This document shows positions 6,626 through 48,506 of a DNA stretch of 64,000 nucleotides, one piece after another. The stretch comes from Flaccisagitta enflata. Lineage: Eukaryota. Position 1 is the first letter of the stretch. Every line of letters begins with the position of its first letter. The position numbers and the translations under genes were made by a program. Location: assembly GCA_965153355.1 (NCBI GenBank), contig OZ231126.1, positions 33,356,001 through 33,420,000 of the forward strand. The letters are read 5' to 3'. The notes under the pieces were generated by a model that was not told where the DNA came from, did no database searches, and saw only the letters and a program-made list of their open reading frames with translations.

Positions 6626-6873
6626 TATTATACTAGCAGTCTTTATCAAGCCATCTCATGTTGATTAACAGTGTAGCATTGAATGAGATATGTCACCAGT
6701 CAAAACCCTAACGCGATGGCGCGGCATTTAGGGCTGAGCTATGGAGTGAGAAACACCATTGATCCCTCATTGGATATGCATTGAATATCAGTTTCTTCAT
6801 GGGCTTCATGGCAGTTCGCTTTGTTATCTTCGGTTCTTTGTTCCGTCTATTTGTCTGCCATGAATGACCTTGT

Positions 6874-6946
<73 letters not shown>

Positions 6947-7010
6947 CTACAACAACAACAACAACAACAAAGACAACAACAAAGACAACAACAATGACAA
7001 CGACAACAGG

Positions 7011-7077
<67 letters not shown>

Positions 7078-7078
7078 T

Positions 7079-7127
<49 letters not shown>

Positions 7128-7128
7128 C
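6874..7128. repeat. (AAC)n microsatellite
   Basis: Direct inspection. Confidence 0.98.
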
Positions 7129-7624
7129 GATCGATTCGTGCCACTGCCGTGGGATTTCGAGTAAACTTCACGAATTTGCGTATCATCCTTGCTTAGTGCT
7201 TACATGACCATGGGATCCGTGCAGGTGATTTCCTTGATAAAGTCTTTGTGGGCAGGCTGAGGTGTGAGCGTCTGAATGTTTAACATTATCTTCCTTCAGA
7301 GACCCTGAAGTGCCTCCTATGTTTTCCAGCATTGGTCTGAGCGTATTTTGCGAAATGTGAACTAATTGTTTTCTTCTTTGTAATGCCTAATGGCATGATT
7401 GTACTACCTAGAGCAAAAGTCTTCGTTCACCTACAAGCATGAATAACCTTACATTGATTCAAGATAAATAGGTAAAATCGGTGAGATCTGGAAACAACTT
7501 TTAAAATCTTTCATTTGAGTCCAATCCCATTCCAGTTGCTCAAAGCTTTTAGAAATGAGAGCAATTTGAAGATAGTTTGTCAATTTGGAAAATTAGGAAA
7601 TTAATTTAGGATTTTCCTGTGTTA

Positions 7625-8470: not shown

Positions 8471-8893
8471 TGAGGAAGAATAACAAATAATAAAAAATAA
8501 ATCAGTAACATAAATATTGATATAATTTGTTAGCTGTCATAAGTTATTGCAATGAGTTTAAACAATCATTTTGTTTTTATTTATGAAAGAATCTTTTATT
8601 TTATACCCTTCAACTAATCTTTGAAATTATTTTTTCTTGAATTTATACATTTATTTATGACATTACTGGATCATCTATTTACTTTTGTTTTTCAAATAAT
8701 ATGAAATCAGGTTTTAAGGTGTATTAGTCTTGCTCCTTTCTAACTAACTAACCAACTGTTCCTGAAAGAGATCAATTTTTCATTGTTCACTAAGAATTAA
8801 TTCTATGCCAAAAGAATCATGTGACTTGCACATTGGTTCATTGGTGTACTCATAAGAAAGAGAAGGGGTTAGAGAGAGAATGAGTAAGTGAAT

Positions 8894-9250
<357 letters not shown>

Positions 9251-9258
9251 AAATAAAA

Positions 9259-9405
9259 AACAAGGCCGTATACACGGCAGCATTAGTCGCGGACGGGTGG
9301 GCAGGAGCGGAAAACCTCAAAAAACTTAGTTGTGACGGACCGACGGACCGACGGACCGACGGACCGAAAAGTGGCTTATAGAGTCGCGTGTCCGCGACTA
9401 AAAAA
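9259..9405 (-). mobile_element. HINE/DINE-1-like element
   Basis: AACAAGGCCGTATACACGGC...(GACGGACC)n...AGAGTCGCGTGTCCGCGACTAAAAAA. Confidence 0.75.
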
Positions 9406-12637: not shown

Positions 12638-13015
12638 TATAAACATGTTTTTCGAGGGCAGGGGGGGGGCTTAGAGCAGGAAAAAATCTGGAAAAAATCC
12701 ATACATTTGAACCATGGGAATGTTGGAATATGAATAGAACTTTGACACCATGGAACTGCTATTTATAATCGAGGTCCCCTCAAGTTTCAGAAATATTTTG
12801 TAGAACAGACTATATGCTGTCTAAAACTGTTTTTGTTAAAGATTTTCTCCGATCCTAACTTACTCTATTCATCCTAGATATTAAGCATAAAATTAAGACA
12901 AACGAAGCATCTGCTTTTAAGTGCGGAGAAGGGGACAGTGTAGCAAACAATATTTTCTAAACAGTAATCGTCAAGACACATTAGTCTTGTTTGTATAGAA
13001 ATAGATCCTGGCTTG

Positions 13016-13825
13016 TGAAATGCCCGGGATATCCCCAGGGCAAGAAGTAAATCTAGCCACCTAAGAGACTGAAAGGAACGGACAGACAGACTGAACAGAC
13101 AAACCCCACGAACGAACCTCGCCTGCCATAACTAACAATAAGATGCAAACCTTAGTGATAGCGCGGGAAAATCCCCCTAGCTAAAGGGCCCAGATAAAAG
13201 AACTGCCTCAAAAGGAGGTACCTAATAAACAAAGGCTTGGGTTAGAAACGGATCAACAATATATAAATATAAACTTAACAAACGAACATTCAACAGAAAT
13301 ATCAACAGCGGCTGCTAAGGGGGAAGAAAAGGGCAAGATTAAGGTTAGCAATAATAAATAGCAATCCAGGTTATTCCTCGGAACAAGAACGGTAAATCGT
13401 GTCTTGGTGAGAATCGTCTTCGTCTTGGCGGTCGCCGTATTTAACGGAAAAGTCTGGGCAGAGAGAGAGAGAGAACCGAGGTTCCTCGATCGCTCATTGG
13501 CTGAGAGCCTTCCACATCGTCGCCTCACTCGTATTTGTCGTGTGCCGACCTCGTAGCGTGTCTGCGAGGTACGCCGACTGGGACTTGGGCGTTGGACTTC
13601 AAGACCCAGATATCGCAGACCAGGACCAGGATATCGATGATTAGGACCTGGCTGCAGCTCTTCGTTGGGAGAGAGAGATAGCGCGCGATGGAGGTGGAAA
13701 GAATAGACGATGATAAGAAAGATAGAAGAAAGTGGGAAAGAGATAGCAAAAGACAGGATGGGATAGAAAGAAAAGGGAAAGAACAGATGAGGAAAAGGGA
13801 ACCGACTAAAAGGCGCGGCACTACA
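13016..13825 (-). repeat. 3' LTR (810 bp)
   Basis: Plus strand starts TGAAATGCCCGGG and ends GCGGCACTACA, matching the other LTR; flanked by TSD GCTTG. Confidence 0.97.
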
Positions 13826-14289
13826 GTTGCTCCCGGGCGCACCCGAGATGATGTCCCTATCATCTCAACTGAACTCTTAAACCTAAACCTAACCTTAACC
13901 TAGTCTAGAATCGGGCACGATCCGAACAACGGTAGTACCCAGCTGGATATCCTGAGCTCATGTCCCTCGAAACCTAAAATAGGCAGTCGGACGGACAAAA
14001 AGAGACTGCAGAAAAGGTGAAAAGAGCAGGGGCACGTAGCAACAATGTGCATGCTCAAACAATCAAACCGAGAATCAATCATATGCATCAAACAAGCATT
14101 CGAAAACGTGAAAAGAGCCGCGGACAGCCTCTTATAGACCCGCCCAACGAACCCCTCAAAAAAGAAAAACAAAACAAAACAAATAACGAACTCGTTCTAT
14201 TTACAAAAAAAAACAAAACAGACTTCATCCAATAAAAACAAGGACAAAGTCAAACGACGGGACGGTATAAGGACGCCCATGTGGGCGTC

Positions 14290-17200
14290 TCAATGAACGG
14301 GTTCGTCCCACGGAAACCATTCCAGCACGAAGAGGCTAGCGGAGATGTGTTGGAATAGCGCCGGCGAGCAGTCGTCGAACTTCGTTACGAGGTCGTCAAA
14401 ATGCACGCAGCAGTGATTCTGCTGGAGCACGACCTGCGCGGCTTGGTTTAGGAAACTCTCCCCGCGATGGGAGACATGTTTTCCGAGAGAGCGAAGGCGT
14501 GGGAAACGGATTTCAAAGTATGTATTGCAGAATTGTTTAAACACCTCGCTCGCTTGCGAACGGATCTCCTTCGTCTCAATCGACTTGATGAACTCCCGGA
14601 TGGAGTCAGCAGGCAGAGCGTCGCAGCCGACCACGAAAAAGTGGTAAACCGTTGCGGTTAGGGTTGGCCGAATTGACAGGACAGCGATCGTTTTCGCTGG
14701 GCAACGCAAATCATTCAGGTAATGCCAGAATAGGAGCAGCTTGTCGGCGGGGGCGATTACGTCTCTAATGAGACGCTTCATCTCGTCGGCACTTTGAATC
14801 CTTTGATTATCGTCGATGAATTGATGAAAGCGGTCGTCTAAATTGCATTGGATGGAGGGCAATGACGGACACGGACCCGTGGAGGGCAAGTCCCAACTTT
14901 GCGCGCAGTGGGATGCTAGCGCCTGAGAACCCGCGGATCGGAACGAAAGGGCTTGCATAATGAGCGGGCGCAACGACGCCTCTTCGCCTAGTAAGAGTAC
15001 TTTTTGCAAGGCTCCTTGAAAGTTGGACCTGCCCTCGGTAACTGCATTTGCAATGGAACTGACCGAAACGACGACCTGTTTCCGTAGAAGCGCCGTGGGG
15101 AGTCGCAGGCCATACTGCTTGCACATTTTGTTGATAAGCGATTTTAACTGGGCGTCGTCCAATACCCGGAGATAGTGGAGTTGTTGCTGATTGTGATAAA
15201 AGATTTGCTTCTGCGCAAGGCTCATTCTCTCCTCCAGGGGCATATCGTAGACCGCCGTGTAAAAGTCGAGGTAAGGTTGCAAATCCCCCTTGTTATTCTC
15301 AAAGTGGGTCACAGCATCGCGGAGGCAGGAGCTTAAGTTCAGCATCGGGTCCATCCTTCCGTATTTGAGGCGCCTAGCTGCGACTGACACGTCCAGTATA
15401 GCTGCAGAGGCAAAACCCTTCAGAAAACGGGCCTTCTCGTTGTCCTCCCATAGCGACGCCAATTCGGTAAGGGTGGCGCGAAGAGCGGCGTCGACAATCT
15501 TGGTGTGCGTGCTGAATGTGCGGGCAGCGGCGGCCAAGTATTCTGGCGCGTTACGAGATGGGAGTTCGGATATCACACCCTTATATTCTTGTTTACCGTG
15601 CCATAATGCATTCTTGATTTTCTGAATGCGCCATCCGTAGAGGTCTGTTGCCACCTCGATTGACGGGTGTTGAAGGAGGGCGTCGATCTTGAATTGAGTG
15701 GAGGGCTCGTCATGCGGTGCTGGATGACCGTCAGAGCAGGGGGCCGGAGATGCAGTATTTTCTGGAGCCATAGCACCGCTAGCCTCCAGAACTTCGCATT
15801 CACCAACCTCCGTCTCCTCCAATTGGCCTTCCTCTTCTTCATCAATCGTCACAGCAAATGGTCCATCGGGGAGGGACTGCTCCTCTGTCTCCATTTTGTC
15901 CAATTCTGGGATAGTGACATCTGGAGCCGATTTCGTGTCCTGAACTGGCGGCTGTTTAGTTGGAGCCGACAGCTCCTGAACAAATTTGTCGCATTCAGCC
16001 AGTAAGACTTCATCTTCAGGAGTGAACTCGACGTTTGGTTCGTCCATCTGGACGACAACCAGAGTCTCCGACTCATCCTCTGATTCGGAATACACAATGT
16101 CATCCATGTGGACGACTGATGCAACATTTTCCCTCTCCTCGATGCTCTCGATCGCTTTGTCCTTTGCTTCGAACAGGAAGTTGTCCAGTGCTTGGCGAGA
16201 CGAAAAGAAATCCCCATCGGCGTTGATACCATCAAGCATGGCGTTGAGGAACTCTTCGAATCCCTCCCTAGTGCTTTTTAACCGGTCTGGGTTGGTCGGC
16301 TCATTGTCGATGTCTTCCCAATCACAATCGCCTGACCCAGTGGTCAGCTCGCGAATTCGATTCTTTTCGCTTTCTTTCCACAATCCGTAGATGTGGCGCA
16401 GGAGGAAGTGGATTTCTAGCGGACTGTTGCACGGCATTAACGCGGCGGGAAATCTTGCGGCGGCGGCCTGGCAAACTGGAAAGAACCAGTCTGGCGTTGA
16501 TGATTTAGTGACGGACAGGCAAATATCGGAGTCGAAGTCGTCCGGGCATGTGCTAACGCCAGATGGACCAGCGGAAAGACGGCGGTCGGGGAAAGTGACG
16601 CAGAAATGGTCAATCGGGTGGGTTGCGTCGTTATTGGTGGCATTGAGTATCATCTTGATGGACACCGGGTCGGCAAACGCGTACGCGAGTTGTTTTTCAG
16701 TGAGTTTCTTGACCCACCAGTGGCTCATGGCGATGAGAATGTCTTTTGGCCAGGTTAGGTCTGGGAAGGCGCGGTGAAACATGTCGAGTGCGTTCTTTTC
16801 ACAGTTTCTCCCCCAGCGATCTGCCATTATGTCCTCCATGTCCGCGTATTTGATACCGATCAAACGCCCGCCGTAGAAGGAGTTGACGATATGCGCCAAG
16901 TCGTCAAACATTGAGATGTTGACGATGCGCATGGCTGGATGGGTGAGGACTTCTCCAAACTTTGGTGGGAGCCTGCGTTCTCCTCCATATTCAGTTTCAA
17001 CCAATTGTGTGGCTTGCAGGATGAAGGTGCACTCGTCCTCCTTGTCCTCTAGGACGGCCACTTGGATTACGTGGCAGCTGGATGGGAGTAGGCCCTGTTG
17101 CGCTTTCTGCGCCTGAACCGCATAGTAGTCGCGGATTTTCTGTTCGGGGCGCTTTTTCCGCCATGCCTTTTGAATTCGCTTTGTGGTGACCTCGCGCTGG

Positions 17201-17556
17201 CGGATCTCCTCTTCGCTGACACCCGCGTTTTGGAGGGAGCGACGATGATGGTAGTACTCGTCTCCCGGAACAATTTTGCCTTCAGGGTTACGAACGCGCT
17301 GTCGTAGTGGGGTGTCTTTGTTAACCTGATCGCCTTCGCGATCGGCCAGCAACGTCACTGTTTCCCCTTTGGCTTGTGCGTCGTTTGCTAACTTGAGAAT
17401 TTTGTCCAAATAGACATCTAATTCCCAAGATCGCTTGCACGTCCTCTTCCTTCGTTCTTCGTCGGTCATGAACTCGAAAATCCTGCGTTTTGTGGTTGCC
17501 TGAAACTGTTTCTGCTTCTCATGCTCCTCTCGGATGTTGAAGCGCTTTTTCGCCAT
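14290..17556 (-). CDS. ORF4: 1088-aa protein with N-terminal DEDDy 3'-5' exonuclease, acidic linker, and C-terminal EXD3/Mut-7-like helical region + degenerate exonuclease
   Basis: ExoI LLADREG (D72,E74), VIQVA, EVLTHPAMRIVNISMFDDL (ExoII D219), SHW..KLTEKQLAYAFAD (ExoIII Y292,D296): RNase D/WRN/EXD-type pattern. Intact ORF inside the LTRs, ATG context GAAAATGG. Confidence 0.85.
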   Translation of the reverse strand: MAKKRFNIREEHEKQKQFQATTKRRIFEFMTDEERRKRTCKRSWELDVYLDKILKLANDAQAKGETVTLLADREGDQVNKDTPLRQRVRNPEGKIVPGDEYYHHRRSLQNAGVSEEEIRQREVTTKRIQKAWRKKRPEQKIRDYYAVQAQKAQQGLLPSSCHVIQVAVLEDKEDECTFILQATQLVETEYGGERRLPPKFGEVLTHPAMRIVNISMFDDLAHIVNSFYGGRLIGIKYADMEDIMADRWGRNCEKNALDMFHRAFPDLTWPKDILIAMSHWWVKKLTEKQLAYAFADPVSIKMILNATNNDATHPIDHFCVTFPDRRLSAGPSGVSTCPDDFDSDICLSVTKSSTPDWFFPVCQAAAARFPAALMPCNSPLEIHFLLRHIYGLWKESEKNRIRELTTGSGDCDWEDIDNEPTNPDRLKSTREGFEEFLNAMLDGINADGDFFSSRQALDNFLFEAKDKAIESIEERENVASVVHMDDIVYSESEDESETLVVVQMDEPNVEFTPEDEVLLAECDKFVQELSAPTKQPPVQDTKSAPDVTIPELDKMETEEQSLPDGPFAVTIDEEEEGQLEETEVGECEVLEASGAMAPENTASPAPCSDGHPAPHDEPSTQFKIDALLQHPSIEVATDLYGWRIQKIKNALWHGKQEYKGVISELPSRNAPEYLAAAARTFSTHTKIVDAALRATLTELASLWEDNEKARFLKGFASAAILDVSVAARRLKYGRMDPMLNLSSCLRDAVTHFENNKGDLQPYLDFYTAVYDMPLEERMSLAQKQIFYHNQQQLHYLRVLDDAQLKSLINKMCKQYGLRLPTALLRKQVVVSVSSIANAVTEGRSNFQGALQKVLLLGEEASLRPLIMQALSFRSAGSQALASHCAQSWDLPSTGPCPSLPSIQCNLDDRFHQFIDDNQRIQSADEMKRLIRDVIAPADKLLLFWHYLNDLRCPAKTIAVLSIRPTLTATVYHFFVVGCDALPADSIREFIKSIETKEIRSQASEVFKQFCNTYFEIRFPRLRSLGKHVSHRGESFLNQAAQVVLQQNHCCVHFDDLVTKFDDCSPALFQHISASLFVLEWFPWDEPVH

Positions 17557-17656
17557 TTTCGTCGCCGTCGTCCTTAGTTGGCGTTGAATTCAATGGTCGC
17601 AATAGTTGCGGGCGAAAAGAAAGAAAAGAGAATTTTAGAATAGTCCGCCAGTCCTA

Positions 17657-17689
17657 CCACTGGTATCCTAGCGGTATTTCTTATATATA
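17657..17689 (-). promoter_or_regulatory. Candidate internal TATA + Inr promoter for ORF4
   Basis: Minus strand TATATATAAG, then CCAGT about 28 nt downstream. No ATG between it and the ORF4 start. Confidence 0.35.
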
Positions 17690-17941
17690 GTCATTGTACT
17701 CATATCACTCTGGTCATTACCTTTATTCTAGTCGTCAATTTTGGATTGAATTTTGCCAAAGAAACTGTCCCAATTAAATCTATCGTCTTATTTTTAAATT
17801 ATCCCTGGAAAAATCAAAAAACAACAAATTCAAATACAAAACCCAATCACATTGACGAGCCACATACTAGTCACTAAAGTCACGATACAAAATCAATGCT
17901 TCAACGTCGGATCATAGAGCAAGCCCAAATAGGCTTCTGGC

Positions 17942-18715
17942 TCAGAATTTGACGCAAAATTTTCGGTTGGAGATGAAGCGGCGGCCAGGAGTGAGAGTGC
18001 GAGTGCCGAGACGGCTCATCACTTCCTTCACGCAGTAGAGGAAACCGTCGACCTCGTACGGGATGAGATGAACGTCGTCATTCTCGAACAATGAGTCCTT
18101 TGTTGGGCGACGGCCCCCATAAACTCGCTTTTTGCCCTGATTGCGTGCGGTATAGTATTTTAGAGTGTTCACGTGATGATGGTCAGGGCCAAATTGGGGG
18201 ATGCGACTTTCGAGGAGAGAAATTTGAAAGTTAATGTGGCCCGGAGATCGACGAGCGAAGGGGGACATGGTCACGATCTTTTGGCCATTGCGCTTCCTGC
18301 GATAAACCTCCTGCAGGTCCTCGACAACGTCACTGTATTTGTTTCTGGGGGCCTGATTGTTGGTGGTGGGCCCCTCGCTGAAATGGAGTCGTCGTTTTCC
18401 CTTGGGTCCGGAAACGTACTCAACGCGTGGCGGGGCGGGGATGGGTGTTGCGCGTCTACCCAAATCATTCGTCCCTAGGCCGCCAACAATGATGAACTCG
18501 GCCCTTGCCGCTATCGGGTGGGCCATCAGTGCAATGATGTCGGCGACTGTGCCGCCGCTGATAGAGAGGATGAGGGCGTCGGGCATTGGCGTGTAATCTC
18601 GGGGGTTTTCGCAGGGGCCCCGACCCTGGCTGTCCATGAGGACGAGGGTGGTGAAACGGCGAGGGTCGCCGGCTTCTTTCACCCATTTGCCATTGAACTT
18701 TCGTGGGAACACCAT
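17942..18715 (-). CDS. ORF3: SGNH/GDSL-family hydrolase (esterase-like), 257 aa from first ATG
   Basis: Block I LVLMDSQ (Ser29), block II ISGG, block III GTND (Asn83), block V DDVH (Asp213/His216), in the right order and spacing. ATG context GAAATGG. Confidence 0.85.
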   Translation of the reverse strand: MVFPRKFNGKWVKEAGDPRRFTTLVLMDSQGRGPCENPRDYTPMPDALILSISGGTVADIIALMAHPIAARAEFIIVGGLGTNDLGRRATPIPAPPRVEYVSGPKGKRRLHFSEGPTTNNQAPRNKYSDVVEDLQEVYRRKRNGQKIVTMSPFARRSPGHINFQISLLESRIPQFGPDHHHVNTLKYYTARNQGKKRVYGGRRPTKDSLFENDDVHLIPYEVDGFLYCVKEVMSRLGTRTLTPGRRFISNRKFCVKF

Positions 18716-18924
18716 TTCGATATTGTTATGAATCTCTGTGGAATTTGGAGAGGGGAGTTGCTTCAATTATCGAGTCGAGCCGTGCCCAAATGTGCACATG
18801 GAATGACAAACAGTCAACTTGGCCAGTGACAAACGGGTACAGTCGTGCGGATAAGCGCCTGCGTATTGCAGCCCTAGACAAACAATGGTTGGACTGCACG
18901 TTCATAACAATGTCTTTACCCATA

Positions 18925-19415
18925 CGATGTAACCGGTTTAACCACGCGACTTGGATTTTTTGATTATTGTACTGATGTAACCGACGTACTAACGCGACTT
19001 AGTTTTCCATCACTACGTCCCCGTCCGTCAGTTTTTGAGAGCTATCATGAGGATACACCCCGGTCCGACCAGCATGGCAGGAGTGCCCCTCAAAGATGTC
19101 GCGTTACCGCGCATCTAGGTGTTAACCAGTACCCATACAGTTCCCCATCAATATATTGACCCGGCTGACGTAACCACGCGACTGGTTTTCATTACCGCCC
19201 TTGCGTCCGTCAGTCCTTGAGAACCATTGTAAGGATACACCCCGGTCCAAACAGCATGGCAGGAGTGTTTTGAAGAGGTTGCGTTACCACGCATCCTGGA
19301 TGCTAACTAATATCTTACATAGTTTCTCATTGCTATTTATTCATCGTCAAAGCAAAAAAAAAAGGAATGATAGGGAACATGGATACACCCCGGTCCAAAC
19401 AGCATGGCAGGAGTG
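18925..19415. repeat. Diverged tandem repeats (~180 bp unit) with a 35-bp conserved core in the pol-ORF3 spacer
   Basis: Core GGATACACCCCGGTCC(G/A)A(C/A)CAGCATGGCAGGAGTG at 19051-19085, 19233-19267 and 19381-19415. Flanking unit sequence is also duplicated. Confidence 0.85.
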
Positions 19416-19655
19416 ACTTAATACCACTGATAGCCATAGTTGATAAAACTGCTTTTATTTACACTACATGTGTAGATTAAGAGTAAAAACATGTCGACAG
19501 TAATAAAAGTAACAACGAACATTGCAAATGTAAAATTTCTTCGGTCCACCAACGAGGTTCCCAAAGATCTAAATTATGGTTGTTTTTGTTTGGTTTTGTA
19601 TTTTGTTTTTTTTTTTTTTTTTTTTTTGTTCCGTTTTGTATATTTGGGTGTCATA

Positions 19656-22600
19656 CTACGATTGTTGTTTGGGCTTTGCTGCCCTTCTTGGAGGCAATTC
19701 ATCTATTGCTTGTTCGGAAAAGCCAGGGTTGTTGTGACTTTGAAGCTTTTTGAGTGCTTGAATAGTTTTCTTGCTTGCCACCAGGGCTGGACTCGCCGCT
19801 GCGGCTGTTGCCGCTGCTTCAGGCGCTGACGATGTCCTTGGTCTTGAAGTTTGTGGTGTGATTGGAGTATTCGCTTGTCGAGGCTTTTTAGGTGCTGATG
19901 TCACCGTTGTTGGGATGGACCTTGGAGTTGAAGTAGATGGTCCGGCTTTGGGAGTTCTGCTTGAGGCGCTACTCGAACGACTCGACCCGGTTTTGAACAT
20001 TGTTGGGGTTAAGCCCGTGAGTCGGAAGACATCTGAGATTGAACGCGGTTGATTTGAAGTTTCTTCGTCTGAATCATCAACTAGCTCTTGCAGTGGCACT
20101 TGCTCTGAGATTCCTTCGTTGTTTGAGATTGCTTGTAAATGTTGGTTGATATCAGATGACGTTGAAGGAGCAATTTGTAAGCGAGTTAATGATGGAATTT
20201 TACTTGCAGGAACTGCTTTTGGCTTCGGGATTGATCGAGCTTTAGGGATTGCACCCGCTGGGTTGTTGCGATTGGGTGCTGTGGCAGTCACGACTTGAAG
20301 CGGAGAAGAAGGAGTTGGCAATGGAACTGGAGGTATGGCGGCAGAGTGCCCACTGTGCCCCTGCTGCCCGTTACCGTTATTGCTTGTTTGAGAACTCCCA
20401 CCCACGTGGGCGGATGAGTTTGGTTTCTTTCTTACTCCAGTGACAACGTTGCTGACTGCTAGGAGGAGCTCCAACGCCTTTGGGTTGAGTTTCTGTTGTG
20501 AGTTTTCCTCAAGAGTGGGTGTTGGATCGATCAATTCGGTTTCCTCTTGTGGCCTTGGGAATTTTGGAGCGTGGTATTGTTTTAGGTCACACTGTGGCCT
20601 GACAAGTTCTTCGTCATCGCGCCTGATAACATATGTGTTGCCAATTTCGTGGTCTGGTGGATCGATGCGTTCGTGTACTTCCCATGGACCATCGAATTTG
20701 ACTTTCATTTTGTTTCCCTTGTTCAGGTGAAGTTCCCGCATGACTTGCTCCCCTTTTTGGAATGGGTCTGTGTGTGTTTTCCCTTTGGGTGGCTGTGCCA
20801 TTTTCTCCATGTAATTGGTGTGGAGTTCTTCCTTCAATTCATGGATCTTTTCGAGCTGCTTTTGGTGATGCTGCACGTACGCTTTCGTGTCTTTGCTCCA
20901 ATCTTTGGTTTCAGGCGGTGATGGTAGGGCGTCCTGGAGCGGCACTCGTGCTTCGCGACCAAACATTTTGAGGTGAGGCGTTAGGCCATCAGATGTGTGT
21001 GGCGTTGTGTTGTAACCCAGTTCCAGGGATGGGAGGTACTTCGTCCATTGTGGACCCCACTGGGCGACTCGCTTGCAAAGTTCGGCGATAATTGTCCGGT
21101 TCTTGCGTTCAGTCTGGCCCTGACTGGCGGGGTGGTACGCCATTCCAAACTCTTTGCGGATTCCGTACACTTTTGTTAGCGCCTCAATGAGTTGATTTTT
21201 AAACTCCCCACCGTTATCGGTCCGCCAGATGGCTGGCGAGCCGAAACGGCGGATGAACTGCCATAAATGCTTTGCAACTGTGACCGCCTGTTTCCCCGCC
21301 ATTGGATAGAAGCAACAGTACTTGGTGTACACATCCTCGATAACGAGGATGTGGTCGCAGCCGTGCGACAAAATCGGAAGTTCTAGCAGATCAGCTTGGA
21401 TGGTGTGGAGTGGATACTTTGCTTTCTGAGGGAGGACGCGGACTGCTTTTCTGTAGTTAGTTTCGCCTCGACACATTTGGCACTCTCGGCATGATTTCAC
21501 CTTTTCCTCGATGTCCTTCCTTATTGTTGGCCATACACAAAATCTCAGTGCTCTGCTTAAAGAACGTTTCTGTCCAGCATGGCCTGCAAATGCGTCGCCA
21601 TGAATTCGGTGAAGGACTTCTCCAATCAAGAGGTATGGTACTACTACGCGTAAACAAGTTTCCCCGAGCGGATTTTTGAACGACTGGTAGAGAACATCCT
21701 CGATGACTTCAAGGTTTTCAATTTGGTTGATGTACCATAAACTGAGGCTTTTTGGTGCAGGTTTGTCTTTCCCTTCATAGACCCAGCATTTTGCTAGTCG
21801 GATGTCTGGATCGTCATTTTGGCCTTCGCGGATGCGTTCTTTTAAATCTTCGTCTGCGTTGGACAAGACTTCGGCTATCGGGGCTTCTGAAGTGGACATA
21901 GCTCCTAAGAAGATGTACTCCTCGTCGGGAGTCTTTGGATTATCTGGATGAGGCGCTCTTGAGAGCGCGTCTGCGTCAGAGTTTTTCTTCCCTTCTTTGT
22001 GACGGAGGTCCATTTCGTAGGATGCTAATTCGATTGCCCAGCGCGTGCGACGACCAGTCGCATCTTTCTCATCATTGAGAGTTCGGCAAGACAAGAGTGG
22101 GCGATGGTCGGTGAAGCACAAGAACTTCCTGTATCTCAGATAATGGGAGAATTGGCGCGTTGCCCATACCAACGCCCAAAACTCTTTGTCGTACGTGCAC
22201 CAGGCTGCTTGTTGGCGCGTGAGCTTTTGTGATGCGCAGGCTACCATTTGTTCGCAATTGCGTTCATCACGTTGCGAAAGGACGCAACCAACCGTCGTGT
22301 CGGACGCATCTGTTTTCAAAATGAAGTCGCGTTTGAAATCCGGGAATGCGCACGCTGTGCCCTCAAGAAGCATTGACTTAAGCGCCTCGTAAGATTTTTG
22401 TTGCGCGTCGGACCATGAAAACGGCTGGTCCTTCAGGAGCAGGTTAGTCATGGGTTCGGAAATCTTTGCGAAGTTTGGTAAATGGCTTCTGTAGTAGTTA
22501 CAAAGGCCGATGAAGCCCCTGACCTCCGATTCGTTCTTTGGGACTGGCCACTCACTGATTTTCTTCAAGTTGTGTGGATCTGGTTTGATCCCTTCCTCCG

Positions 22601-24239
22601 ATATCACATAGCCAAGAACCACTGCTTCGGATCTGAAAAAGTTGCATTTTGCCGGATGGACTTTGAGTCCGGAGTCTGCTAGGGCTTTGAAGACGCCTCG
22701 AATCACTTCAAAGTGGGTCTGGATGTCTGGGGTACAGATGATGATATCGTCAAGGTAGGCCAACACATATTGTGTTGGCAGACCCCGCATTACAAGTTCC
22801 ATTAGAGCAGCCATCGTTGCACCGGAATTCTTCGCGCCCATGGGAGTGCGAAGATACTCCAGGTGTCGACGGCCGTCGCTAAACGCAAAAAATTTGCGGT
22901 GGGCCTCGGCTACTTCCACCTGGAAGTAGCCTTTGAGGAGATCCATGGTCGTGATGACCTTTGGATTTCTGAAGCGTCGGATGGAATCTTGTATGTTCGG
23001 CAAAGGGAATGACGCCTTTACTGTGCAGGCGTTGAGACGCCGGAAATCAGTACAATACCTCCATCCTCCTTGTTTTTTGCGCACAAGGAGGATGGGGGCA
23101 GAGTACGGCGAGTTACTTTCTTGGGCAACGCCCATGGAGATGAGTTCACTTGTTTCTCGATCAATTTCTTCGCGGACATCGGGAGGTGGAGTCTTATATT
23201 GTGGGGCTGTTATTGGTTTATCCGTGGTGAGCTCAATGTAGTGGTGGGTCAATTTGGTTTTGCCTAAATCGTGTTTGTGACGCGCAAAGATCCCCTCGTA
23301 TTCATTGCAAATTTCTCTGAACTCATCGCGTTGTTCCTTATTCAGAAGCGAACCCTCAAGAGAAACTCGGAATTCTAATTCATCGCCTTCAAGTTTAGCT
23401 TTTGGTTCACCATCGGGCTTAACAATCGGAGGATTGGATGGGCTCTCGCTTGTCGAAGCAGCCGCTAACACCGTTGTTGGCTGCTGTTGCGATTCTGTCC
23501 ATATCTCCGGATCTAAATTCTCTTCGACGGCCACAGGTGTGCCTCTACGAAGTACTACTTCCTCTTTTGTGGGATTCAATATCTCGATTACATGCGTTTC
23601 CTGCTCCAAGTCTATCACGCCCCAAGCAGACATCACTGGAAGTTCCTCCTCTCGATCCCCCATCAATGGCCGAATCAGCATAGTTTTTGGTTTGTTCGGG
23701 TTGGCCCGCGGGTCAGGTCCCTCAATGCTCACGGAAACTAAGTTCAATGATTCTGGTGCTAGGCTCACATCCTCCGTGAGGGCAACATGCGTCGGCGCTG
23801 AAGATTGGCATGGCGCGTGTCCAATTGGGACTGGGTATTGGTCAATGATAAGCTCGTTTTTTGCGAAATTTAAAATGGCGCCATGTTTTGTGAGGAAGTC
23901 TAATCCTATCAGCAGTGGGTTCACTAAGTTTTTGATGACGTTGACCTCATAATGGAATTGTTTTTGTCCAATTTGAATTGGAATTAAGAGGGAGAATGGC
24001 GAATTTAAAGGAGTTTTATTTACAGAAACACAAGTTTTGGCTCGGCGACGGTGAATGTACCGTAACAATCTGGGATCAGCATCTACCACCGTCGATGAGA
24101 TGCCACCGGCCTCGGCTCCCGTGTCCACAAGAGTGCGGACTTGCGTCCCAAGGATATTTGCAACAACGGTACATTTGAGCCCAGGAGAGGTTATGCCAGC
24201 GGTGGCCCCTGGGGGCTCGCCGCTGGCTGCTGAAAACAC
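19656..24239 (-). CDS. pol: Pol polyprotein (protease, RT, RNase H, integrase), probably made as Gag-Pol by -1 frameshift
   Basis: LVDTGA (aspartic protease). WRYCTDFRRLN, DLLKGYFQ, YLDD (RT). LKTDAS, TDHRPL, DADALSR (RNase H). H-x6-H...C-x2-C, QADL, TDNGGEF, ERKNRTI (integrase). GPW as a GPY/F-module variant. No stops over 1527 codons. Confidence 0.98.
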   Translation of the reverse strand: MFSAASGEPPGATAGITSPGLKCTVVANILGTQVRTLVDTGAEAGGISSTVVDADPRLLRYIHRRRAKTCVSVNKTPLNSPFSLLIPIQIGQKQFHYEVNVIKNLVNPLLIGLDFLTKHGAILNFAKNELIIDQYPVPIGHAPCQSSAPTHVALTEDVSLAPESLNLVSVSIEGPDPRANPNKPKTMLIRPLMGDREEELPVMSAWGVIDLEQETHVIEILNPTKEEVVLRRGTPVAVEENLDPEIWTESQQQPTTVLAAASTSESPSNPPIVKPDGEPKAKLEGDELEFRVSLEGSLLNKEQRDEFREICNEYEGIFARHKHDLGKTKLTHHYIELTTDKPITAPQYKTPPPDVREEIDRETSELISMGVAQESNSPYSAPILLVRKKQGGWRYCTDFRRLNACTVKASFPLPNIQDSIRRFRNPKVITTMDLLKGYFQVEVAEAHRKFFAFSDGRRHLEYLRTPMGAKNSGATMAALMELVMRGLPTQYVLAYLDDIIICTPDIQTHFEVIRGVFKALADSGLKVHPAKCNFFRSEAVVLGYVISEEGIKPDPHNLKKISEWPVPKNESEVRGFIGLCNYYRSHLPNFAKISEPMTNLLLKDQPFSWSDAQQKSYEALKSMLLEGTACAFPDFKRDFILKTDASDTTVGCVLSQRDERNCEQMVACASQKLTRQQAAWCTYDKEFWALVWATRQFSHYLRYRKFLCFTDHRPLLSCRTLNDEKDATGRRTRWAIELASYEMDLRHKEGKKNSDADALSRAPHPDNPKTPDEEYIFLGAMSTSEAPIAEVLSNADEDLKERIREGQNDDPDIRLAKCWVYEGKDKPAPKSLSLWYINQIENLEVIEDVLYQSFKNPLGETCLRVVVPYLLIGEVLHRIHGDAFAGHAGQKRSLSRALRFCVWPTIRKDIEEKVKSCRECQMCRGETNYRKAVRVLPQKAKYPLHTIQADLLELPILSHGCDHILVIEDVYTKYCCFYPMAGKQAVTVAKHLWQFIRRFGSPAIWRTDNGGEFKNQLIEALTKVYGIRKEFGMAYHPASQGQTERKNRTIIAELCKRVAQWGPQWTKYLPSLELGYNTTPHTSDGLTPHLKMFGREARVPLQDALPSPPETKDWSKDTKAYVQHHQKQLEKIHELKEELHTNYMEKMAQPPKGKTHTDPFQKGEQVMRELHLNKGNKMKVKFDGPWEVHERIDPPDHEIGNTYVIRRDDEELVRPQCDLKQYHAPKFPRPQEETELIDPTPTLEENSQQKLNPKALELLLAVSNVVTGVRKKPNSSAHVGGSSQTSNNGNGQQGHSGHSAAIPPVPLPTPSSPLQVVTATAPNRNNPAGAIPKARSIPKPKAVPASKIPSLTRLQIAPSTSSDINQHLQAISNNEGISEQVPLQELVDDSDEETSNQPRSISDVFRLTGLTPTMFKTGSSRSSSASSRTPKAGPSTSTPRSIPTTVTSAPKKPRQANTPITPQTSRPRTSSAPEAAATAAAASPALVASKKTIQALKKLQSHNNPGFSEQAIDELPPRRAAKPKQQS

Positions 24240-25642
24240 CCATTTCCACTGAAGGCGTGGATGCCCAATGGCTCAGGTTCATAGCCGATCGGATGGTCAG
24301 CACCCGGAAAGACTGTCCATCCGTGGCCCGTGTTGCCCAACGCCGCGGTCTCTTCGTAGATGGTGGGTGTTGGCTCTTCTGCGTTAACCTGAGTTTCCTC
24401 GCACGCCCCTAGCGTTGCGGCTGAAGCCGGTGTCTGATTATATGATCCTCGTGGACCACTTTGGGCTTGGCTCTGGTATGGGGCTGCGGGGCGTCTTGCG
24501 CCGGCCAGTGTGTTGTTAACATACTGAGACCCCTGGGTTAATCCCGGCACCATGCGAGGCTGTCCTTGGAATGAGTTTCTCACCGGTTGGCGTTGGTCTT
24601 GGAATGCAGGTGTGTATTGTGGCTTCTGGAATGATTGCTGAGACTGTGGATGGTATTGTCTCTGAGGAGCGAGATCCCTGCGTAAGCTACCAAAGCCTTG
24701 TACTATTTCCTTTTTCATTTCATCCATGCCAGCTTTGATCGATGCGACCGAATCTTTCACTTCCGCCATTTGCAATTCGCCTGCTCGAACTTTGGTTTCT
24801 AACGCGCTGAGACGGCGATCAAACCCTTCCGAATCGGCATTAGACAAGGCTGCCATTCTTGGCGTCACGGCTTGTGGTGCGGATGACGTTGCCTCTGCTG
24901 TCGGCAAACCAAAAAGCGCGGAAACGATCCCTTCAGCTCCAGCGGACCCCACATCACGTGATTCGGCAGACAGATGGATCATGGTATTCTCCCAAGAGGT
25001 AGCCGTCTGGAAAGCGTCATCAAGTGTTGCGCTGTCAGTTGGGCAATTGAGGTGGAGATGCGTGCGAAGAAGCTGGTTGCGTAAGCCCTCGCGAAACCTC
25101 TGCAGGCCAACTCGCCTCCATTCCTCGGGGACATTTTTGAGAGCCGATTGGTACTTTTCCATCTTTTGCAACAACAAGTCTTTGTAAGTGCGTAGAGATT
25201 GGCCAGGCTGCCTTTGATGTGCGTCTAAGCGCGAAAGGAACGCTATTTTCTCCTTCTGATCGGTGAAGGCCTCCGACAGAGCTGGCTTCAACAACGCCCA
25301 AGTTGCCTTCGTGGCCGCCGGCAGGTTCTCGAACGCCGCACGAGTGGGACCCGGGGAAAGTTTTGTTGATACCCATTGCACGAAAAGGCCGGGTAGGCGT
25401 GGATCATCGGCTTTTAGGTTATAGCAAGCGCGGATGTTATCTTGAAAAGTAATTATCCAGATGTCAAAATCTTGACCTATGACATAAGTCGAGCACGGGA
25501 TGTTCTTAACATGGGCAAGCTGGGGTGCTCGCTGTTGCTCAAGGCCCAATTGCCTCAGGAGGGCGCCTATTGCGTTAACTTGATCTGGTTGTAAATTTGC
25601 TAGACCAGCCAATTGGCCGGCTTCCTCATCGTTGTCAGGCAT
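24191..25642 (-). CDS. gag: Gag (483 aa): capsid-like domain, coiled coil, Q/P-rich tail, no CCHC knuckle
   Basis: ATG-initiated ORF directly upstream of and overlapping pol. Retrotransposon gag-like segments W(ALL)K..L...F, Q.PGQSLRTY and RFREGLR. Confidence 0.9.
   Translation of the reverse strand: MPDNDEEAGQLAGLANLQPDQVNAIGALLRQLGLEQQRAPQLAHVKNIPCSTYVIGQDFDIWIITFQDNIRACYNLKADDPRLPGLFVQWVSTKLSPGPTRAAFENLPAATKATWALLKPALSEAFTDQKEKIAFLSRLDAHQRQPGQSLRTYKDLLLQKMEKYQSALKNVPEEWRRVGLQRFREGLRNQLLRTHLHLNCPTDSATLDDAFQTATSWENTMIHLSAESRDVGSAGAEGIVSALFGLPTAEATSSAPQAVTPRMAALSNADSEGFDRRLSALETKVRAGELQMAEVKDSVASIKAGMDEMKKEIVQGFGSLRRDLAPQRQYHPQSQQSFQKPQYTPAFQDQRQPVRNSFQGQPRMVPGLTQGSQYVNNTLAGARRPAAPYQSQAQSGPRGSYNQTPASAATLGACEETQVNAEEPTPTIYEETAALGNTGHGWTVFPGADHPIGYEPEPLGIHAFSGNGCFQQPAASPQGPPLA
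24195..24239 (-). promoter_or_regulatory. -1 programmed ribosomal frameshift signal (slippery site + stem-loop)
   Basis: pol is in the -1 frame relative to gag. Minus strand reads G TGT TTT, a 5-nt spacer, then GCCAGCGG...CCGCTGGC (perfect 8-bp stem) enclosing a GCCC/GGGC inner stem. Confidence 0.7.
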
Positions 25643-25807
25643 TGTTTTCGGCTAATGTTCCTTCGATTTGTTCAAAGAGAAAAAAAAAAAAATGCTTATC
25701 TAAGGGTCTACTCACCGAGTTTCCCTTAGTTATTTGATGCTAACAACTGAAATAAATAATTCTCTCTTTTTATGATTTATAGTTAAGTATGTTGATGCTT
25801 TGCTTAA

Positions 25808-25978
25808 CGAGCCTTCACTTGGTTAGTTCGGCTCGATTTACGTTGCTTAAATCTTTCCTGCTGATGCTTAGGCCTAGTGAACAGTTTCCTGCGGAACTAA
25901 TATAACGAGCATAGCGCCATGTTAACAAAAGAACAGTCTATTTGCCTTTTCAAGCCTTCACTTGATTAGTTCGGCTTG
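25808..25978 (-). promoter_or_regulatory. Duplicated 28-nt stem-loop in the 5' leader (candidate packaging/dimerisation signal)
   Basis: Copies at 25808-25835 and 25951-25978. Outer stems CGAGCC/GGCTCG and CAAGCC/GGCTTG show a compensatory change. Confidence 0.55.
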
Positions 25979-28023: not shown

Positions 28024-28041
28024 CTCCGGCCGAAAGCACCA
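28024..28041 (-). promoter_or_regulatory. Primer-binding site (tRNA PBS)
   Basis: Minus strand TGGTGCTTTCGGCCGGAG begins 1 nt after the 5' LTR's CA, complementary to a tRNA 3' end ...CCGGCCGAAAGCACCA. tRNA identity not assigned. Confidence 0.85.
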
Positions 28042-28042
28042 C

Positions 28043-28854: not shown

Positions 28855-28860
28855 GCTTGT

Positions 28861-29792
<932 letters not shown>

Positions 29793-30256
29793 GTATTTTC
29801 TTATACAAATTGCATCATAGATAGCTTTAGGAGAGATTCCCCAATGAAAATCATACTTGACAGTGTACAGAATTTTGGATTCCCCTTACTACTAAAGGAG
29901 TTCATGCAGAATTATCCTTTTAGTAACCATATTGAACTGACCCCTTGGCTTCGTTTACCATCTCTGTTAAAATGAGGTTTTTTTCACAATTACATCTCCA
30001 TAACTCCTCCCTCTTTACCCAAAAAGAAGACTTGGAATACTTTCCTCATGAGGAAAAACCTAAAGCAGCATTTGTCTTTGAAAAGGTTCTCTTTCCAACC
30101 AAGTTTGGGGAAAACCAAAAGAATTTCAGGATTTAAAGGAAAATTGACAAAACGGGGAACTAAAACGAAATTTGAGGCACTTTCCTAACGAAAGATGAGA
30201 TTCTGGTTTCCAAACTCAGTGTTCAAAAAGTGGAGGCTTAATTCAATGGAGGGAGA

Positions 30257-47670: not shown

Positions 47671-48506
<836 letters not shown>

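Follow-up and report, generated by a model that had tools for sequence, protein, structure and literature searches.

A marine Ty3/Gypsy element with predicted SGNH esterase and DEDDy exonuclease genes between pol and the 3′ LTR

Introduction

GDSL-type esterases and DEDDy-type exonucleases have been described as products of ORF3s in the Vesta and Juno LTR elements and in the Athena/Terminon elements of bdelloid rotifers (Rodriguez, Kenefick and Arkhipova 2017, PMC5408684), and an element of Adineta sp. 11 is reported there to combine both domains in a single ORF3. According to that description, Vesta and Juno resemble the element presented here: they have LTRs, a pol in the order PR-RT-RH-IN and GDSL/SGNH and DEDDy frames after pol, they are described without transmembrane (TM) or coiled-coil env features, and homology is in both cases recognized only by sensitive methods. 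Terminon and Athena are large retroelements whose accessory genes also include DEDDy and GDSL ORFs (PMC6431247, PMC5408684), but they are described as telomere-associated elements of up to 40 kb that have a Penelope-like RT and no LTRs or integrase. A further precedent is the ORF1p esterase of CR1/L2/RTEX non-LTR elements, exemplified by ZfL2-1 (Schneider et al. 2013, PMC3905857): it is an SGNH esterase encoded by a retroelement, its catalytic set is intact, it shows similarity to PAF-AH and TAP, and it provides a biochemical precedent for lipid binding. Unlike the esterase discussed below, it comes before pol in a non-LTR element, in a place like that of gag, and forms a fusion with a coiled coil. 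Such non-LTR esterases were captured independently, in the account of Rodriguez et al. (PMC5408684).

We analysed a 64,000-nucleotide stretch of a Flaccisagitta enflata contig (OZ231126.1; hereafter the window), in which an esterase-like gene (ORF3) and an exonuclease-like gene (ORF4) occupy the env place of a Ty3/Gypsy element. A first-pass annotation knew of no description of this combination, but one exists, and the annotation's caveat that the architecture might already be catalogued holds in part: since the GDSL and DEDDy pairing of bdelloid LTR elements was published in 2017 (PMC5408684), the element is not of a new kind. What is new is this version of the layout and its marine host, which occurs in marine samples; the layout has so far been described only in bdelloid rotifers, freshwater animals according to PMC5408684. 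There are other differences, all relative to the published descriptions. The two genes are separate cistrons with spacers of 0.4-0.9 kb, versus one ORF3 in the Adineta sp. 11 element; the exonuclease protein, of ∼1,090 aa, includes a basic insert and a conserved C-terminal domain of 470 aa, unlike the bdelloid ORF3 as described; its motif is DEDD-Y, versus the DEED reported for bdelloid elements; and a Pfam search found no dUTPase in pol, unlike in the bdelloid elements. Finally, purifying selection is clear here, versus none seen in bdelloids according to PMC5408684.

Organization of the element

The element covers 15.8 kb of the minus strand (13016-28854 of the window) and comprises the following features.

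13011-13015, no strand: target-site duplication on the 3′ side, GCTTG on the plus strand
13016-13825, minus: 3′ LTR, 810 nt, TG...CA (BLAST; global alignment to 28043-28854)
13826-14289, minus: untranslated stretch from the ORF4 stop to the 3′ LTR; a weak purine tract adjoins the LTR
14290-17556, minus: ORF4, 1088 aa; basic N-terminus, predicted DEDDy exonuclease domain, acidic linker and conserved, predicted helical C-terminal domain
14293-15696, minus: C-terminal domain of ORF4, residues 621-1088, family-specific, predicted helical
15697-16146, minus: acidic linker of ORF4 (residues 471-620), with poor conservation
16627-17379, minus: predicted DEDDy 3′-5′ exonuclease domain of ORF4, about residues 60-310
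17557-17941, minus: ORF3-ORF4 spacer, AT-rich (GC 0.38)
17681-17689, within this spacer: TATATATAA
17942-18715, minus: ORF3, 257 aa, predicted SGNH/GDSL-type esterase with blocks I, II, III and V
18716-19655, minus: pol-ORF3 spacer, with an A-rich run directly after the pol stop
19656-24272, minus: pol, stop-to-stop frame of 1538 aa; encodes PR, RT, RNase H and integrase and ends in ∼350 aa rich in Ser, Pro and Thr
24191-25642, minus: gag-position ORF, 483 aa; shares 82 nt with pol, read in a different frame
25643-28042, minus: leader of 2.4 kb, without an ORF of at least 65 aa on the element's strand
28043-28854, minus: 5′ LTR, 812 nt, TG...CA (global alignment)
28855-28859, no strand: target-site duplication on the 5′ side, matching 13011-13015

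The two LTRs are 3 substitutions and one 2-nt indel apart in a global alignment, and the 5-bp GCTTG is identical on both sides. A putative primer-binding site (TGG...) begins one base past the 5′ LTR. The domain order of pol, PR-RT-RH-IN, is that of Gypsy, with Pfam E-values of 1e-25 for RVT_1, 4e-30 for RT_RNaseH, 2e-14 for Integrase_H2C2 and 2e-12 for rve; PR is weak (6e-4 to 2e-3 with aspartyl protease models). The gag-position ORF is assigned by position only, because it matches no Pfam gag model. With its LTRs, duplication, gag and pol, the element is intact and recently inserted, as the first-pass annotation had proposed, and the two uninterrupted, co-oriented ORFs lie between pol and the 3′ LTR exactly where it had placed them.

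Both spacers contain potential signals. A pyrimidine tract followed by AG is found upstream of the ORF4 ATG, and a pyrimidine tract with CAG ∼24 nt upstream of that of ORF3. For the ORF3-ORF4 spacer we only infer a promoter or acceptor role of such motifs from their letters. The pol-ORF3 spacer additionally holds a direct repeat (35-64 nt) in three copies with a spacing of 148-182 nt (19022-19415).

The length and AT-richness of the spacers, together with the A-run after pol, could suggest joints, as if an independent element or host locus lay inside a Gypsy copy, or the cassette were a product of assembly. However, contigs of two independent DNA runs span the whole stretch with even depth and show no junction from which the cassette is missing; they contain a single internal skip (18633 to 20368), in one low-depth contig of run X3. 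The cargo is not bordered by TIRs or LTRs that would mark a nested element. Elsewhere, the longest contigs with ORF3-type and with ORF4-type proteins of this family share lengths of 15,121 and 5,836 nt, and the 15,121-nt contig appears to carry both. An artefact or a nested insertion is, in our opinion, hardly credible.

The predicted esterase

Neither ORF3 nor ORF4 as a whole protein matches a Pfam family at E≤1, and single-sequence matches stay below curated thresholds throughout; the names SGNH and DEDDy are supported once relatives are included in the searches. For ORF3, Lipase_GDSL_2 was the sole Pfam family matched, with a best E of 0.069 and hits in 3 of 7 members. A profile of seven sequences found PAF acetylhydrolase Ib (PAF-AH Ib) at the top of its PDB matches (E 0.0098-0.061), and blocks I-III are aligned there; these matches do not include the ZfL2-1 chain, and hhalign to E. 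coli TesA gave a probability of 1.9% over 20 columns. Eight of nine Atlas rows were GDSL clusters, with a feature score of 0.94 and model TM values of 0.61-0.63 over 179-197 residues. The block residues are D28-S29 (I), G54-G55 (II), G81-x-N83 (III) and D213-x-x-H216 (V), and conservation among relatives is high for S29 (36/37), G54 (37/37), N83 (37/37) and H216 (34/34) and lower for D213 (26/34). ORF3 is thus predicted to be a soluble SGNH esterase, GDSL-type and PAF-AH-Ib-like, with S, G, N and H intact.

Given the position of the cassette, one possibility is that it replaces env: the esterase or lipase would breach membranes for a non-enveloped particle, in cell-to-cell or horizontal spread, and ORF4 would aid entry or uncoating. 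Phospholipase domains breach membranes for some naked viruses, and the cargo family is present in several marine metagenome studies. Yet neither ORF3 nor ORF4 has a hydrophobic N-terminus, and signal peptides, TM segments and stretches resembling a fusion peptide are absent from both, in agreement with the earlier remark that neither looks like env. The highest 19-residue Kyte-Doolittle mean is 1.31 in ORF4 and 1.9 in ORF3, where the stretch concerned (residues 47-65) is the block II strand and helix of the SGNH fold and not a terminal anchor. Moreover, the proteins of solved structure that come closest to ORF3 are the cytosolic PAF-AH Ib subunits. Membrane penetration by GDSL ORFs has been proposed, in the text of Rodriguez et al. 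2017 (PMC5408684) and of Arkhipova and Yushenova 2019 (PMC6431247), but for the present element we find an env substitute distinctly improbable.

The predicted exonuclease

The N-terminal third of ORF4 is, as judged from motifs and profiles, a DEDDy 3′-5′ exonuclease of the RNase D/WRN type with an intact catalytic set. Its motifs ExoI (D72/E74), ExoII (N213..D219) and ExoIII (Y292..D296) follow the order of cellular DEDDy enzymes (RNase D, WRN, EXD2, Mut-7/Nibbler; PF01612), and the ExoIII context ‘S-x-W ... Q..YA..D’ is common to ORF4, WRN and RNase D. Among relatives at most 50% identical to one another, the catalytic residues are kept in 35/36 (D72), 35/35 (E74), 38/43 (D219), 35/35 (Y292) and 33/35 (D296). 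PF01612 was matched in 6 of 23 family members (best E 1.9e-4), other families in at most one, and the best score in a relative, 21.7 bits, lies below the 23.6 cut-off. In PDB, six of the seven profile matches are nucleases by name or aligned motif (E 0.077-1.5): two diDNase entries, WRN twice, EXD2 and Mut-7. An hhalign comparison with E. coli RNase D (E 0.0016, probability 16%) has ExoII and ExoIII in register. Together with the ORF3 results, these matches and residues uphold the original naming of the cargo as SGNH esterase and DEDDy exonuclease. ORF4 differs from the cellular enzymes by matches below family thresholds, by a basic insert of ∼80-90 residues after ExoI, by being element-borne and multi-copy, and by a unique C-terminal domain instead of HRDC or helicase modules.

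This last domain does not bear out the two-nuclease-domain architecture that had been suggested: the C-terminal 470 residues have no match among Pfam families, PDB entries or Atlas clusters, nor any resemblance to RNase D. Long relatives have a homologous C-terminal part, and C904, H911, C1049 and H1070 are conserved; the helical content comes from a low-confidence model (pLDDT of the AlphaFold models, 46 and 35). For ORF4, 81 representative relatives were found at E≤1e-3, full-length relatives exist at 43-45% identity, and both domains are present in 8 of 13 relatives of at least 800 aa, plus P0002. Compared to P0001, a relative 93% identical, ORF4 differs at 1 of the N-terminal 330 positions and at 31 of 150 in the linker.

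A nuclease with intact, strongly constrained catalytic residues, which shares its broad DEDDy group with Mut-7, EXD2 and WRN, could serve counter-defence, as the first-pass annotation had suggested, trimming or destroying host piRNA/siRNA or their precursors, or degrading surplus nucleic acids of the element that trigger silencing or innate sensing, with the assistance of ORF3. In PMC7968707, arenavirus DEDDh exonucleases are described as blunting innate signalling. However, no result links ORF4 to small RNAs, and this scheme gives the esterase no role of its own. Nor is there a Mut-7/Nibbler subfamily signal in the PDB profile search, that is, a special affinity over WRN, EXD2 or RNase D, because Mut-7 is the weakest nuclease match (E 1.5), behind diDNase, WRN and EXD2. 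We consider counter-defence unlikely.

Ownership and selection

GC at third codon positions is higher in ORF3 (0.65) and ORF4 (0.62) than in pol (0.50) or gag (0.53), a difference consistent with a separate origin, and the two could be host genes acquired by template switching and functionless for the element; in the A. vaga genome, Rodriguez et al. 2017 report no significant departure from neutrality (PMC5408684). The copies of the present element argue otherwise. In two DNA runs, 12 of 13 listed differences in ORF3 (p 1.5e-5), 4 of 6 in ORF4 and 16 of 19 together are synonymous, and all nine listed indels fall in the non-coding 33% of the stretch (p 5e-5), four of them in the pol-ORF3 spacer and one, at 14204, before the 3′ LTR; these counts come from a sample of the variant rows (40 of 206). 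In run X1, the depth of the cargo (485-1466) is like that of gag-pol (721-2273). In a sister family, the 15 listed members include 12 distinct full-length variants of 1082 aa, with 1 of 328 positions varying in the exonuclease region versus 25 of 738 elsewhere (p 0.001). Intact full-length relatives exist down to 43% identity and, for ORF3, at 60%; catalytic residues are kept across the family, with many distinct intact variants per cluster. ORF3 and ORF4 are under purifying selection. Decay of the ORFs in related copies and a dN/dS of about 1, named beforehand as signs against a function, are not what the copies suggest: the genes are maintained by selection. They belong to the element, and the view of them as neutral passengers, very improbable to us, is already largely refuted. 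As to expression, a polyA RNA run with the same organism label, of which ∼6% was read, gave 6 partly fitting reads, and only a few short metatranscriptome contigs match, which could be DNA carry-over.

Possible roles

On balance, we favour an autonomous, recently inserted Ty3/Gypsy element that probably owns ORF3 and ORF4 as accessory enzymes of its own cycle. The sequence evidence establishes its anatomy, the families of the two proteins, the retention of their catalytic residues, purifying selection and the presence of multiple copies; for expression, substrates and role in the cycle we infer the following. Each protein would be translated from a message of its own, either subgenomic or from an internal promoter, and both would serve replication of the element rather than an envelope-type cell entry. 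Assembly or trafficking of particles may involve the esterase at a step that depends on lipids or membranes, by analogy with the ORF1p esterase of CR1/L2 elements, for which such a role was proposed. The exonuclease would take RNA or cDNA of the element itself as substrate and shorten it at the 3′ end, and its Cys/His-bearing C-terminal domain, with a fold of no known family, probably docks the nuclease onto a partner.

A complete Ty3/Gypsy element with two additional genes

The window contains a single complete LTR retrotransposon, 15.8 kb long and lying on the minus strand (13016-28854). Its LTRs were delimited by BLAST of both ends and global alignment, and its parts are as follows, in the 5′ to 3′ direction of the element.

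Features of the element and its target site
13011-13015 and 28855-28859: target-site duplication, 5 bp, GCTTG on the plus strand, identical copies
28043-28854, minus: 5′ LTR, 812 nt, TG...CA
5′ of the gag-position ORF, minus: leader, 2.4 kb, no ORF of at least 65 aa on the element strand
24191-25642, minus: gag-position ORF, 483 aa, named by position only
19656-24272, minus: pol, stop-to-stop frame, 82-nt overlap with gag in another frame
between pol and ORF3, minus: spacer, 0.94 kb
17942-18715, minus: ORF3
between ORF3 and ORF4, minus: spacer, 0.39 kb
14290-17556, minus: ORF4
between the ORF4 stop and the 3′ LTR, minus: 0.46 kb
13016-13825, minus: 3′ LTR, 810 nt, TG...CA

The global alignment of the two LTRs shows 3 substitutions and a single 2-nt indel inside a dinucleotide run. 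The Pfam domains of pol come in the Gypsy order, that is aspartyl protease (weak, its matches scoring under the curated cut-offs), reverse transcriptase, RNase H, integrase zinc domain and integrase core; this order, together with direct LTRs bounded by TG...CA and a short target-site duplication, identifies a Ty3/Gypsy element. A site starting with TGG just after the 5′ LTR is a putative primer-binding site. The protein in the gag position (24191-25642) matched no gag, capsid or zinc-knuckle model in Pfam, and reading its sequence revealed no CCHC motif. The GC content of the element is 0.49-0.52, as against about 0.40 in its flanks. No second copy was found within the window, scans of the window for tRNAs and Rfam families returned none, and the search for host genes among the remaining ORFs yielded low-complexity matches only. 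A first-pass annotation, made from the sequence alone, had reported that the two ORFs lying between pol and the 3′ LTR are uninterrupted and share one orientation; the mapping of LTRs and ORFs confirms this arrangement and its coordinates.

After the integrase core, the C-terminal ∼350 aa of pol (19656-20700) form a low-complexity tail rich in Ser, Pro, Thr and Ala, in which the only Pfam match was a faint one to SH3_Tf2-1 (E 0.23) and no chromodomain was detected. Long arrays of short period (with 8-9-nt units, and of GA/CT type) lie on both sides of the element and again elsewhere in the window (6838-7147, 8791-9300, 29359-29800 and 47600-48200); they give rise to spurious long ORFs in several frames.

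ORF3 encodes a probable SGNH/GDSL-type esterase

Taken alone, the ORF3 protein matched no Pfam family at E≤5 and no PDB entry. Relatives were collected by a word-based search, which found P0003 (99%) and P0004 (60%), and by a profile, which added P0122-P0126 (35-63% identity). Four SGNH blocks stand out in a 7-sequence alignment: (M/C/F)-D-S-Q-G, S-I-S-G-G, G-x-G-T-N-D-L and D-x-V-H-L, corresponding in ORF3 to D28-S29 (block I), G54-G55 (block II), G81-x-N83 (block III) and D213-x-x-H216 (block V). Among 38 homologues, each scored only where its sequence covers the column, S29 is retained in 36/37, G54 in 37/37, N83 in 37/37, H216 in 34/34 and D213 in 26/34.

When the 7-sequence profile was compared with the PDB, the best matches were five sequences of platelet-activating-factor acetylhydrolase (PAF-AH) Ib (E 0.0098-0.061), with blocks I to III in register, and these were followed by two entries named ‘GDSL-like protein’ (E 0.44 and 0.69), among 16 sequences at E≤10. 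The sole Pfam family touched by members of the group is Lipase_GDSL_2, matched by 3 of 7 with a best E of 0.069, under the curated threshold. The ESM Atlas holds a model of the exact ORF3 protein (pTM 0.68), which aligns to eight GDSL-family clusters, out of nine rows, with TM 0.61-0.63 over 179-197 residues; a feature search in the same resource gave 0.94 to eukaryotic clusters, some of which carry Lipase_GDSL_2. The fold predicted for ORF3 is thus the flavodoxin-like alpha/beta fold of SGNH proteins. An AlphaFold2 model built from a 3-sequence alignment was poor (pLDDT 46); Foldseek of that model against the PDB returned nothing at E≤1e-3, and SGNH entries (PAF-AH, GDSL proteins) appeared mixed with alpha/beta-hydrolases at TM≤0.29. 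With hhalign, E. coli TesA aligned to ORF3 over only 20 columns around block II, with a probability of 1.9%. Taking the blocks, the PDB profile matches, the Pfam results and the Atlas results together, we regard ORF3 as very probably an SGNH/GDSL-type esterase, a divergent member of the group that fails curated sequence thresholds.

The N-termini of ORF3 and ORF4 are hydrophilic, and no segment of transmembrane grade was found outside the SGNH core. Neither protein displays a signal peptide, a membrane anchor or a stretch resembling a fusion peptide, so the earlier view that the cargo ORFs are not env stands. That the two proteins replace env functionally, as a substitute serving membrane passage, is in our opinion decidedly unlikely.

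ORF4 begins with a candidate DEDDy exonuclease domain

The word-based search gave two full-length relatives of ORF4 (1088 aa), one at 93% and one at 43-45%. Searching 1.84 billion representatives with a profile extended the family to 81 proteins at E≤1e-3, of which 55 reach 1e-10 and 19 reach 1e-30. The matches form two units, an N-terminal one (∼10-330, with closer relatives matching as far as 480) and a C-terminal one (∼620-1086), and both are present in 8 of the 13 relatives of at least 800 aa as well as in P0002, the sister ORF4-type protein. An SGNH domain fused to ORF4 relatives was not found: hmmsearch of 121 proteins with the ORF3 profile matched ORF3 relatives only.

In the N-terminal unit, the order of the DEDDy motifs is kept. 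A D-x-E-x-D at the N-termini of the relatives is the counterpart of D72/E74 of ORF4 (ExoI), ExoII is N213...D219, and ExoIII is Y292-x-x-x-D296. Retention of the catalytic residues, counted over sequences covering the column, is 35/36 for D72, 35/35 for E74, 38/43 for D219, 35/35 for Y292 and 33/35 for D296. PF01612 (DNA_pol_A_exo1) was matched at E≤1 by 6 of 23 members, the best (E 1.9e-4, 21.7 bits) being under the gathering score of 23.6, as is the N-terminal part of ORF4 itself (12.7 bits, E 0.11); no other Pfam family was matched by more than one of the 23. PDB searches with the single ORF3 and ORF4 proteins and with 3-sequence profiles gave nothing meaningful apart from a weak match to EXD2 (E 1.5). 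With a 23-sequence ORF4 profile, seven matches were obtained at E≤10, spanning E 0.077-1.5: ‘diDNase’ (two), WRN exonuclease (two), EXD2, a Mut-7 homologue and one lectin. Comparison with E. coli RNase D by hhalign (E 0.0016, probability only 16%, 99 columns) puts ExoII and ExoIII of ORF4 on the corresponding RNase D motifs. The distance between ExoI and ExoII is ∼145 residues, compared with 55 in E. coli RNase D, and therefore a basic insert of ∼80-90 residues would follow the first strand. An AlphaFold2 model from a 3-sequence alignment is of low confidence (pLDDT 35). Since no single match is significant, our confidence derives from the convergence of weak matches and the conservation of the five catalytic residues; on these grounds ORF4 probably starts with a DEDDy 3′-5′ exonuclease domain of the DnaQ-like/RNase D group.

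The first-pass annotation had presented the cassette as a candidate anti-silencing system. For such a counter-defence against small RNAs, with its link to the Mut-7/Nibbler/EXD1 exonucleases, the Mut-7 homologue is the PDB match of interest; it comes seventh of the seven (E 1.5), behind diDNase, WRN and EXD2. We consider this explanation unlikely.

The C-terminal domain of ORF4

Between the two units lies an acidic stretch, residues 471-620, whose conservation is poor. Residues 621-1088 (14293-15696), in contrast, are conserved across the family. This C-terminal domain of ORF4 matched no Pfam family, and none was matched by more than one of 19 members; profile search of the PDB gave unrelated weak matches only, the Atlas offered no usable feature match and no cluster, and hhalign against RNase D produced no match (E 0.13). 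Alignment comparison re-found only the C-terminal parts of the long relatives. Because the domain resembles no family, PDB entry, Atlas cluster or RNase D, the ‘two-nuclease-domain architecture’ initially ascribed to ORF4 is unsupported. C904, H911, C1049 and H1070 are among its most conserved positions and could constitute a metal (zinc) site. A low-confidence model suggests that the domain may be all-helical.

Integrity of the cassette and selection among copies

The stretch bearing the element was found in 11 run rows from five studies, six of the rows having at least half of its words; they belong to one organism label and to marine metagenomes. Relatives were sought in scans of JGI metagenomes and IMG/VR as well, and none was found there. 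Contigs of X1, a DNA run of the same organism label, and X3, a marine metagenome, cover 30/30 bins of 13830-28859, and the X1 depth of the cargo (485-1466) is similar to that of gag-pol (721-2273). This full coverage at gag-pol-like depth argues against an artefact, and the absence of terminal repeats bracketing the cassette argues against both an artefact and a nested insertion; either origin is extremely improbable. The longest contigs of two ORF3-type proteins (P0128, P0133) and two ORF4-type proteins (P0001, P0094) are equal in size, 15,121 and 5,836 nt, which suggests, from the sizes only, that genes of the two types sit together on other contigs.

Variation among copies was counted from contig variant tables, on the 40 of 206 substitution rows listed. 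Among the listed substitutions, 12/13 are synonymous in ORF3 (binomial p 1.5e-5 versus the 33% expected for transitions) and 4/6 in ORF4, while 9/9 listed indels fall in the non-coding 33% of the stretch (p 5e-5). ORF3 and ORF4 are clearly under purifying selection among copies. Distinct full-length variants of 1082 aa (98.1-99.9% identical) account for 12 of the 15 members listed in the cluster of P0002, and variable positions number 1/328 in the exonuclease region versus 25/738 elsewhere (Fisher p 0.001). The cluster of ORF3 itself comprises 10 distinct 257-aa variants among 14 members. The cassette could have been a neutral passenger, but differences between copies are mostly synonymous, indels lie outside the ORFs and many distinct variants are intact, so that this explanation is very improbable.

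The leader segment 26355-27356 has X3 depths of 117 and 62, against 4-34 in its neighbours, and other repeats of greater abundance seem to contain it too; within it, about 4,900 of a depth of 5,900 in X1 show a 1-nt deletion at position 26999. One low-depth X3 contig (3.2) skips 1,734 nt (18633-20368), a gap that starts within ORF3 and reaches into the end of pol; the contig may be chimeric or may derive from a copy with a deletion.

Possible expression of the cargo genes

A pyrimidine tract and a CAG precede the ORF3 ATG by ∼24 nt, and a pyrimidine tract with TATATATAA (17681-17689) precedes ORF4. The spacer between pol and ORF3 contains three direct repeats of 35-64 nt, spaced 148-182 nt apart (19022-19415), and a long A-rich run just past the pol stop codon (19589-19646). 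In view of the pyrimidine tracts, the CAG, TATATATAA and the spacer repeats, it is plausible that the cargo would be expressed by subgenomic splicing or from internal promoters. The repeats and the A-rich run may be a regulatory array or else a scar of cassette acquisition. GC3 is higher in ORF3 (0.65) and ORF4 (0.62) than in pol (0.50) and gag (0.53), for which a separate origin of the cassette is a possible reason; the inter-gene spacers are AT-rich (GC 0.38-0.43). As to transcripts, no RNA run was listed among those bearing the stretch; the polyA RNA run X19, of the same organism label and of which ∼6% was read, contained 6 partly fitting reads, and the metatranscriptome X14 a few short contigs, observations that weigh neither for nor against expression.

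Relation to the bdelloid rotifer elements

Full-text literature searches turned up GDSL and DEDDy ORFs in LTR elements only in the work of Rodriguez, Kenefick and Arkhipova in 2017 (PMC5408684) and in papers by that group or citing it. The first-pass annotation knew of no earlier description of the combination, but the 2017 paper already reports ORF3s encoding a GDSL esterase or a DEDDy exonuclease in the bdelloid Vesta and Juno clades and in Athena/Terminon elements (PMC5408684). It describes the invariant residues of these ORF3s as intact, DEED standing in place of DEDD; in Adineta sp. 11 a single ORF3 holds both domains, some DEDDy ORFs have a Cys-His-Cys motif, transmembrane segments and coiled coils are absent, and no significant departure from neutrality is reported (PMC5408684). 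The possible roles it lists are 3′-end processing and membrane penetration; a role in silencing is listed too and called unlikely for self-limiting elements (PMC5408684). A later article repeats the Terminon content (PMC6431247). DEDDy-carrying Terminons reach up to 40 kb. For the esterase there is also the ORF1p of ZfL2-1, shown to be active, similar to PAF-AH and TAP, and able to bind negatively charged phospholipids (PMC3905857).

The present element is the same kind of thing as the bdelloid GDSL/DEDDy elements, with several differences. It has a different host and occurs in marine samples, whereas bdelloids are described as freshwater animals; its cargo is organized as two cistrons, unlike the single ORF3 of Adineta sp. 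11; its DEDD-Y set is intact instead of DEED; and selection is demonstrable, while the bdelloid study saw no significant departure from neutrality (PMC5408684). The exonuclease protein is also much larger than its bdelloid counterparts, with an insert and a novel C-terminal domain.

Possible functions and significance

On balance we favour the reading that both proteins serve the element's own cycle as accessory enzymes; our confidence in this statement as a whole is moderate, higher for the identities of the proteins and lower for their roles. The step at which the ORF3 esterase would act is a lipid-dependent one; the ORF4 exonuclease would work on RNA or cDNA of the element, at the 3′ ends, and the C-terminal domain of ORF4 would dock the exonuclease. 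A bolder proposal, which we regard as quite improbable, is that ORF4 assists the element's reverse transcriptase in trans, as an exonuclease that proofreads or edits cDNA ends, docking through its C-terminal domain. A-family DNA polymerases have a proofreading domain that belongs to the same family, PF01612, and ExoN in the large genomes of nidoviruses offers a parallel. If proofreading were true, an error ceiling would be relieved, so that retroelements could become unusually large (15.8 kb in this case and as much as 40 kb in Terminons), and no retroelement before this one would have had a fidelity device of its own.

The family bears on why some LTR retroelements swap env for enzymes, genes for which the bdelloid study could not show selection (PMC5408684). 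It is a cleaner case, having a marine host, many near-identical intact copies, both catalytic sets intact and clear purifying selection. The exonuclease protein family comprises at least 81 clusters at 50% identity, and its large conserved partner domain is unnamed in databases. Three questions become directly testable: whether the substrate of the exonuclease is RNA or DNA, whether that of the esterase is a lipid or an acetyl ester, and what the partner of the C-terminal domain is. The family is real, selected and, judged by its motifs, enzymatically intact. Should host small RNAs or nascent cDNA prove to be what the exonuclease acts on, transposons would have a counter-defence or fidelity device of a new kind; otherwise, what was a rotifer curiosity would still be extended to a wider phenomenon.
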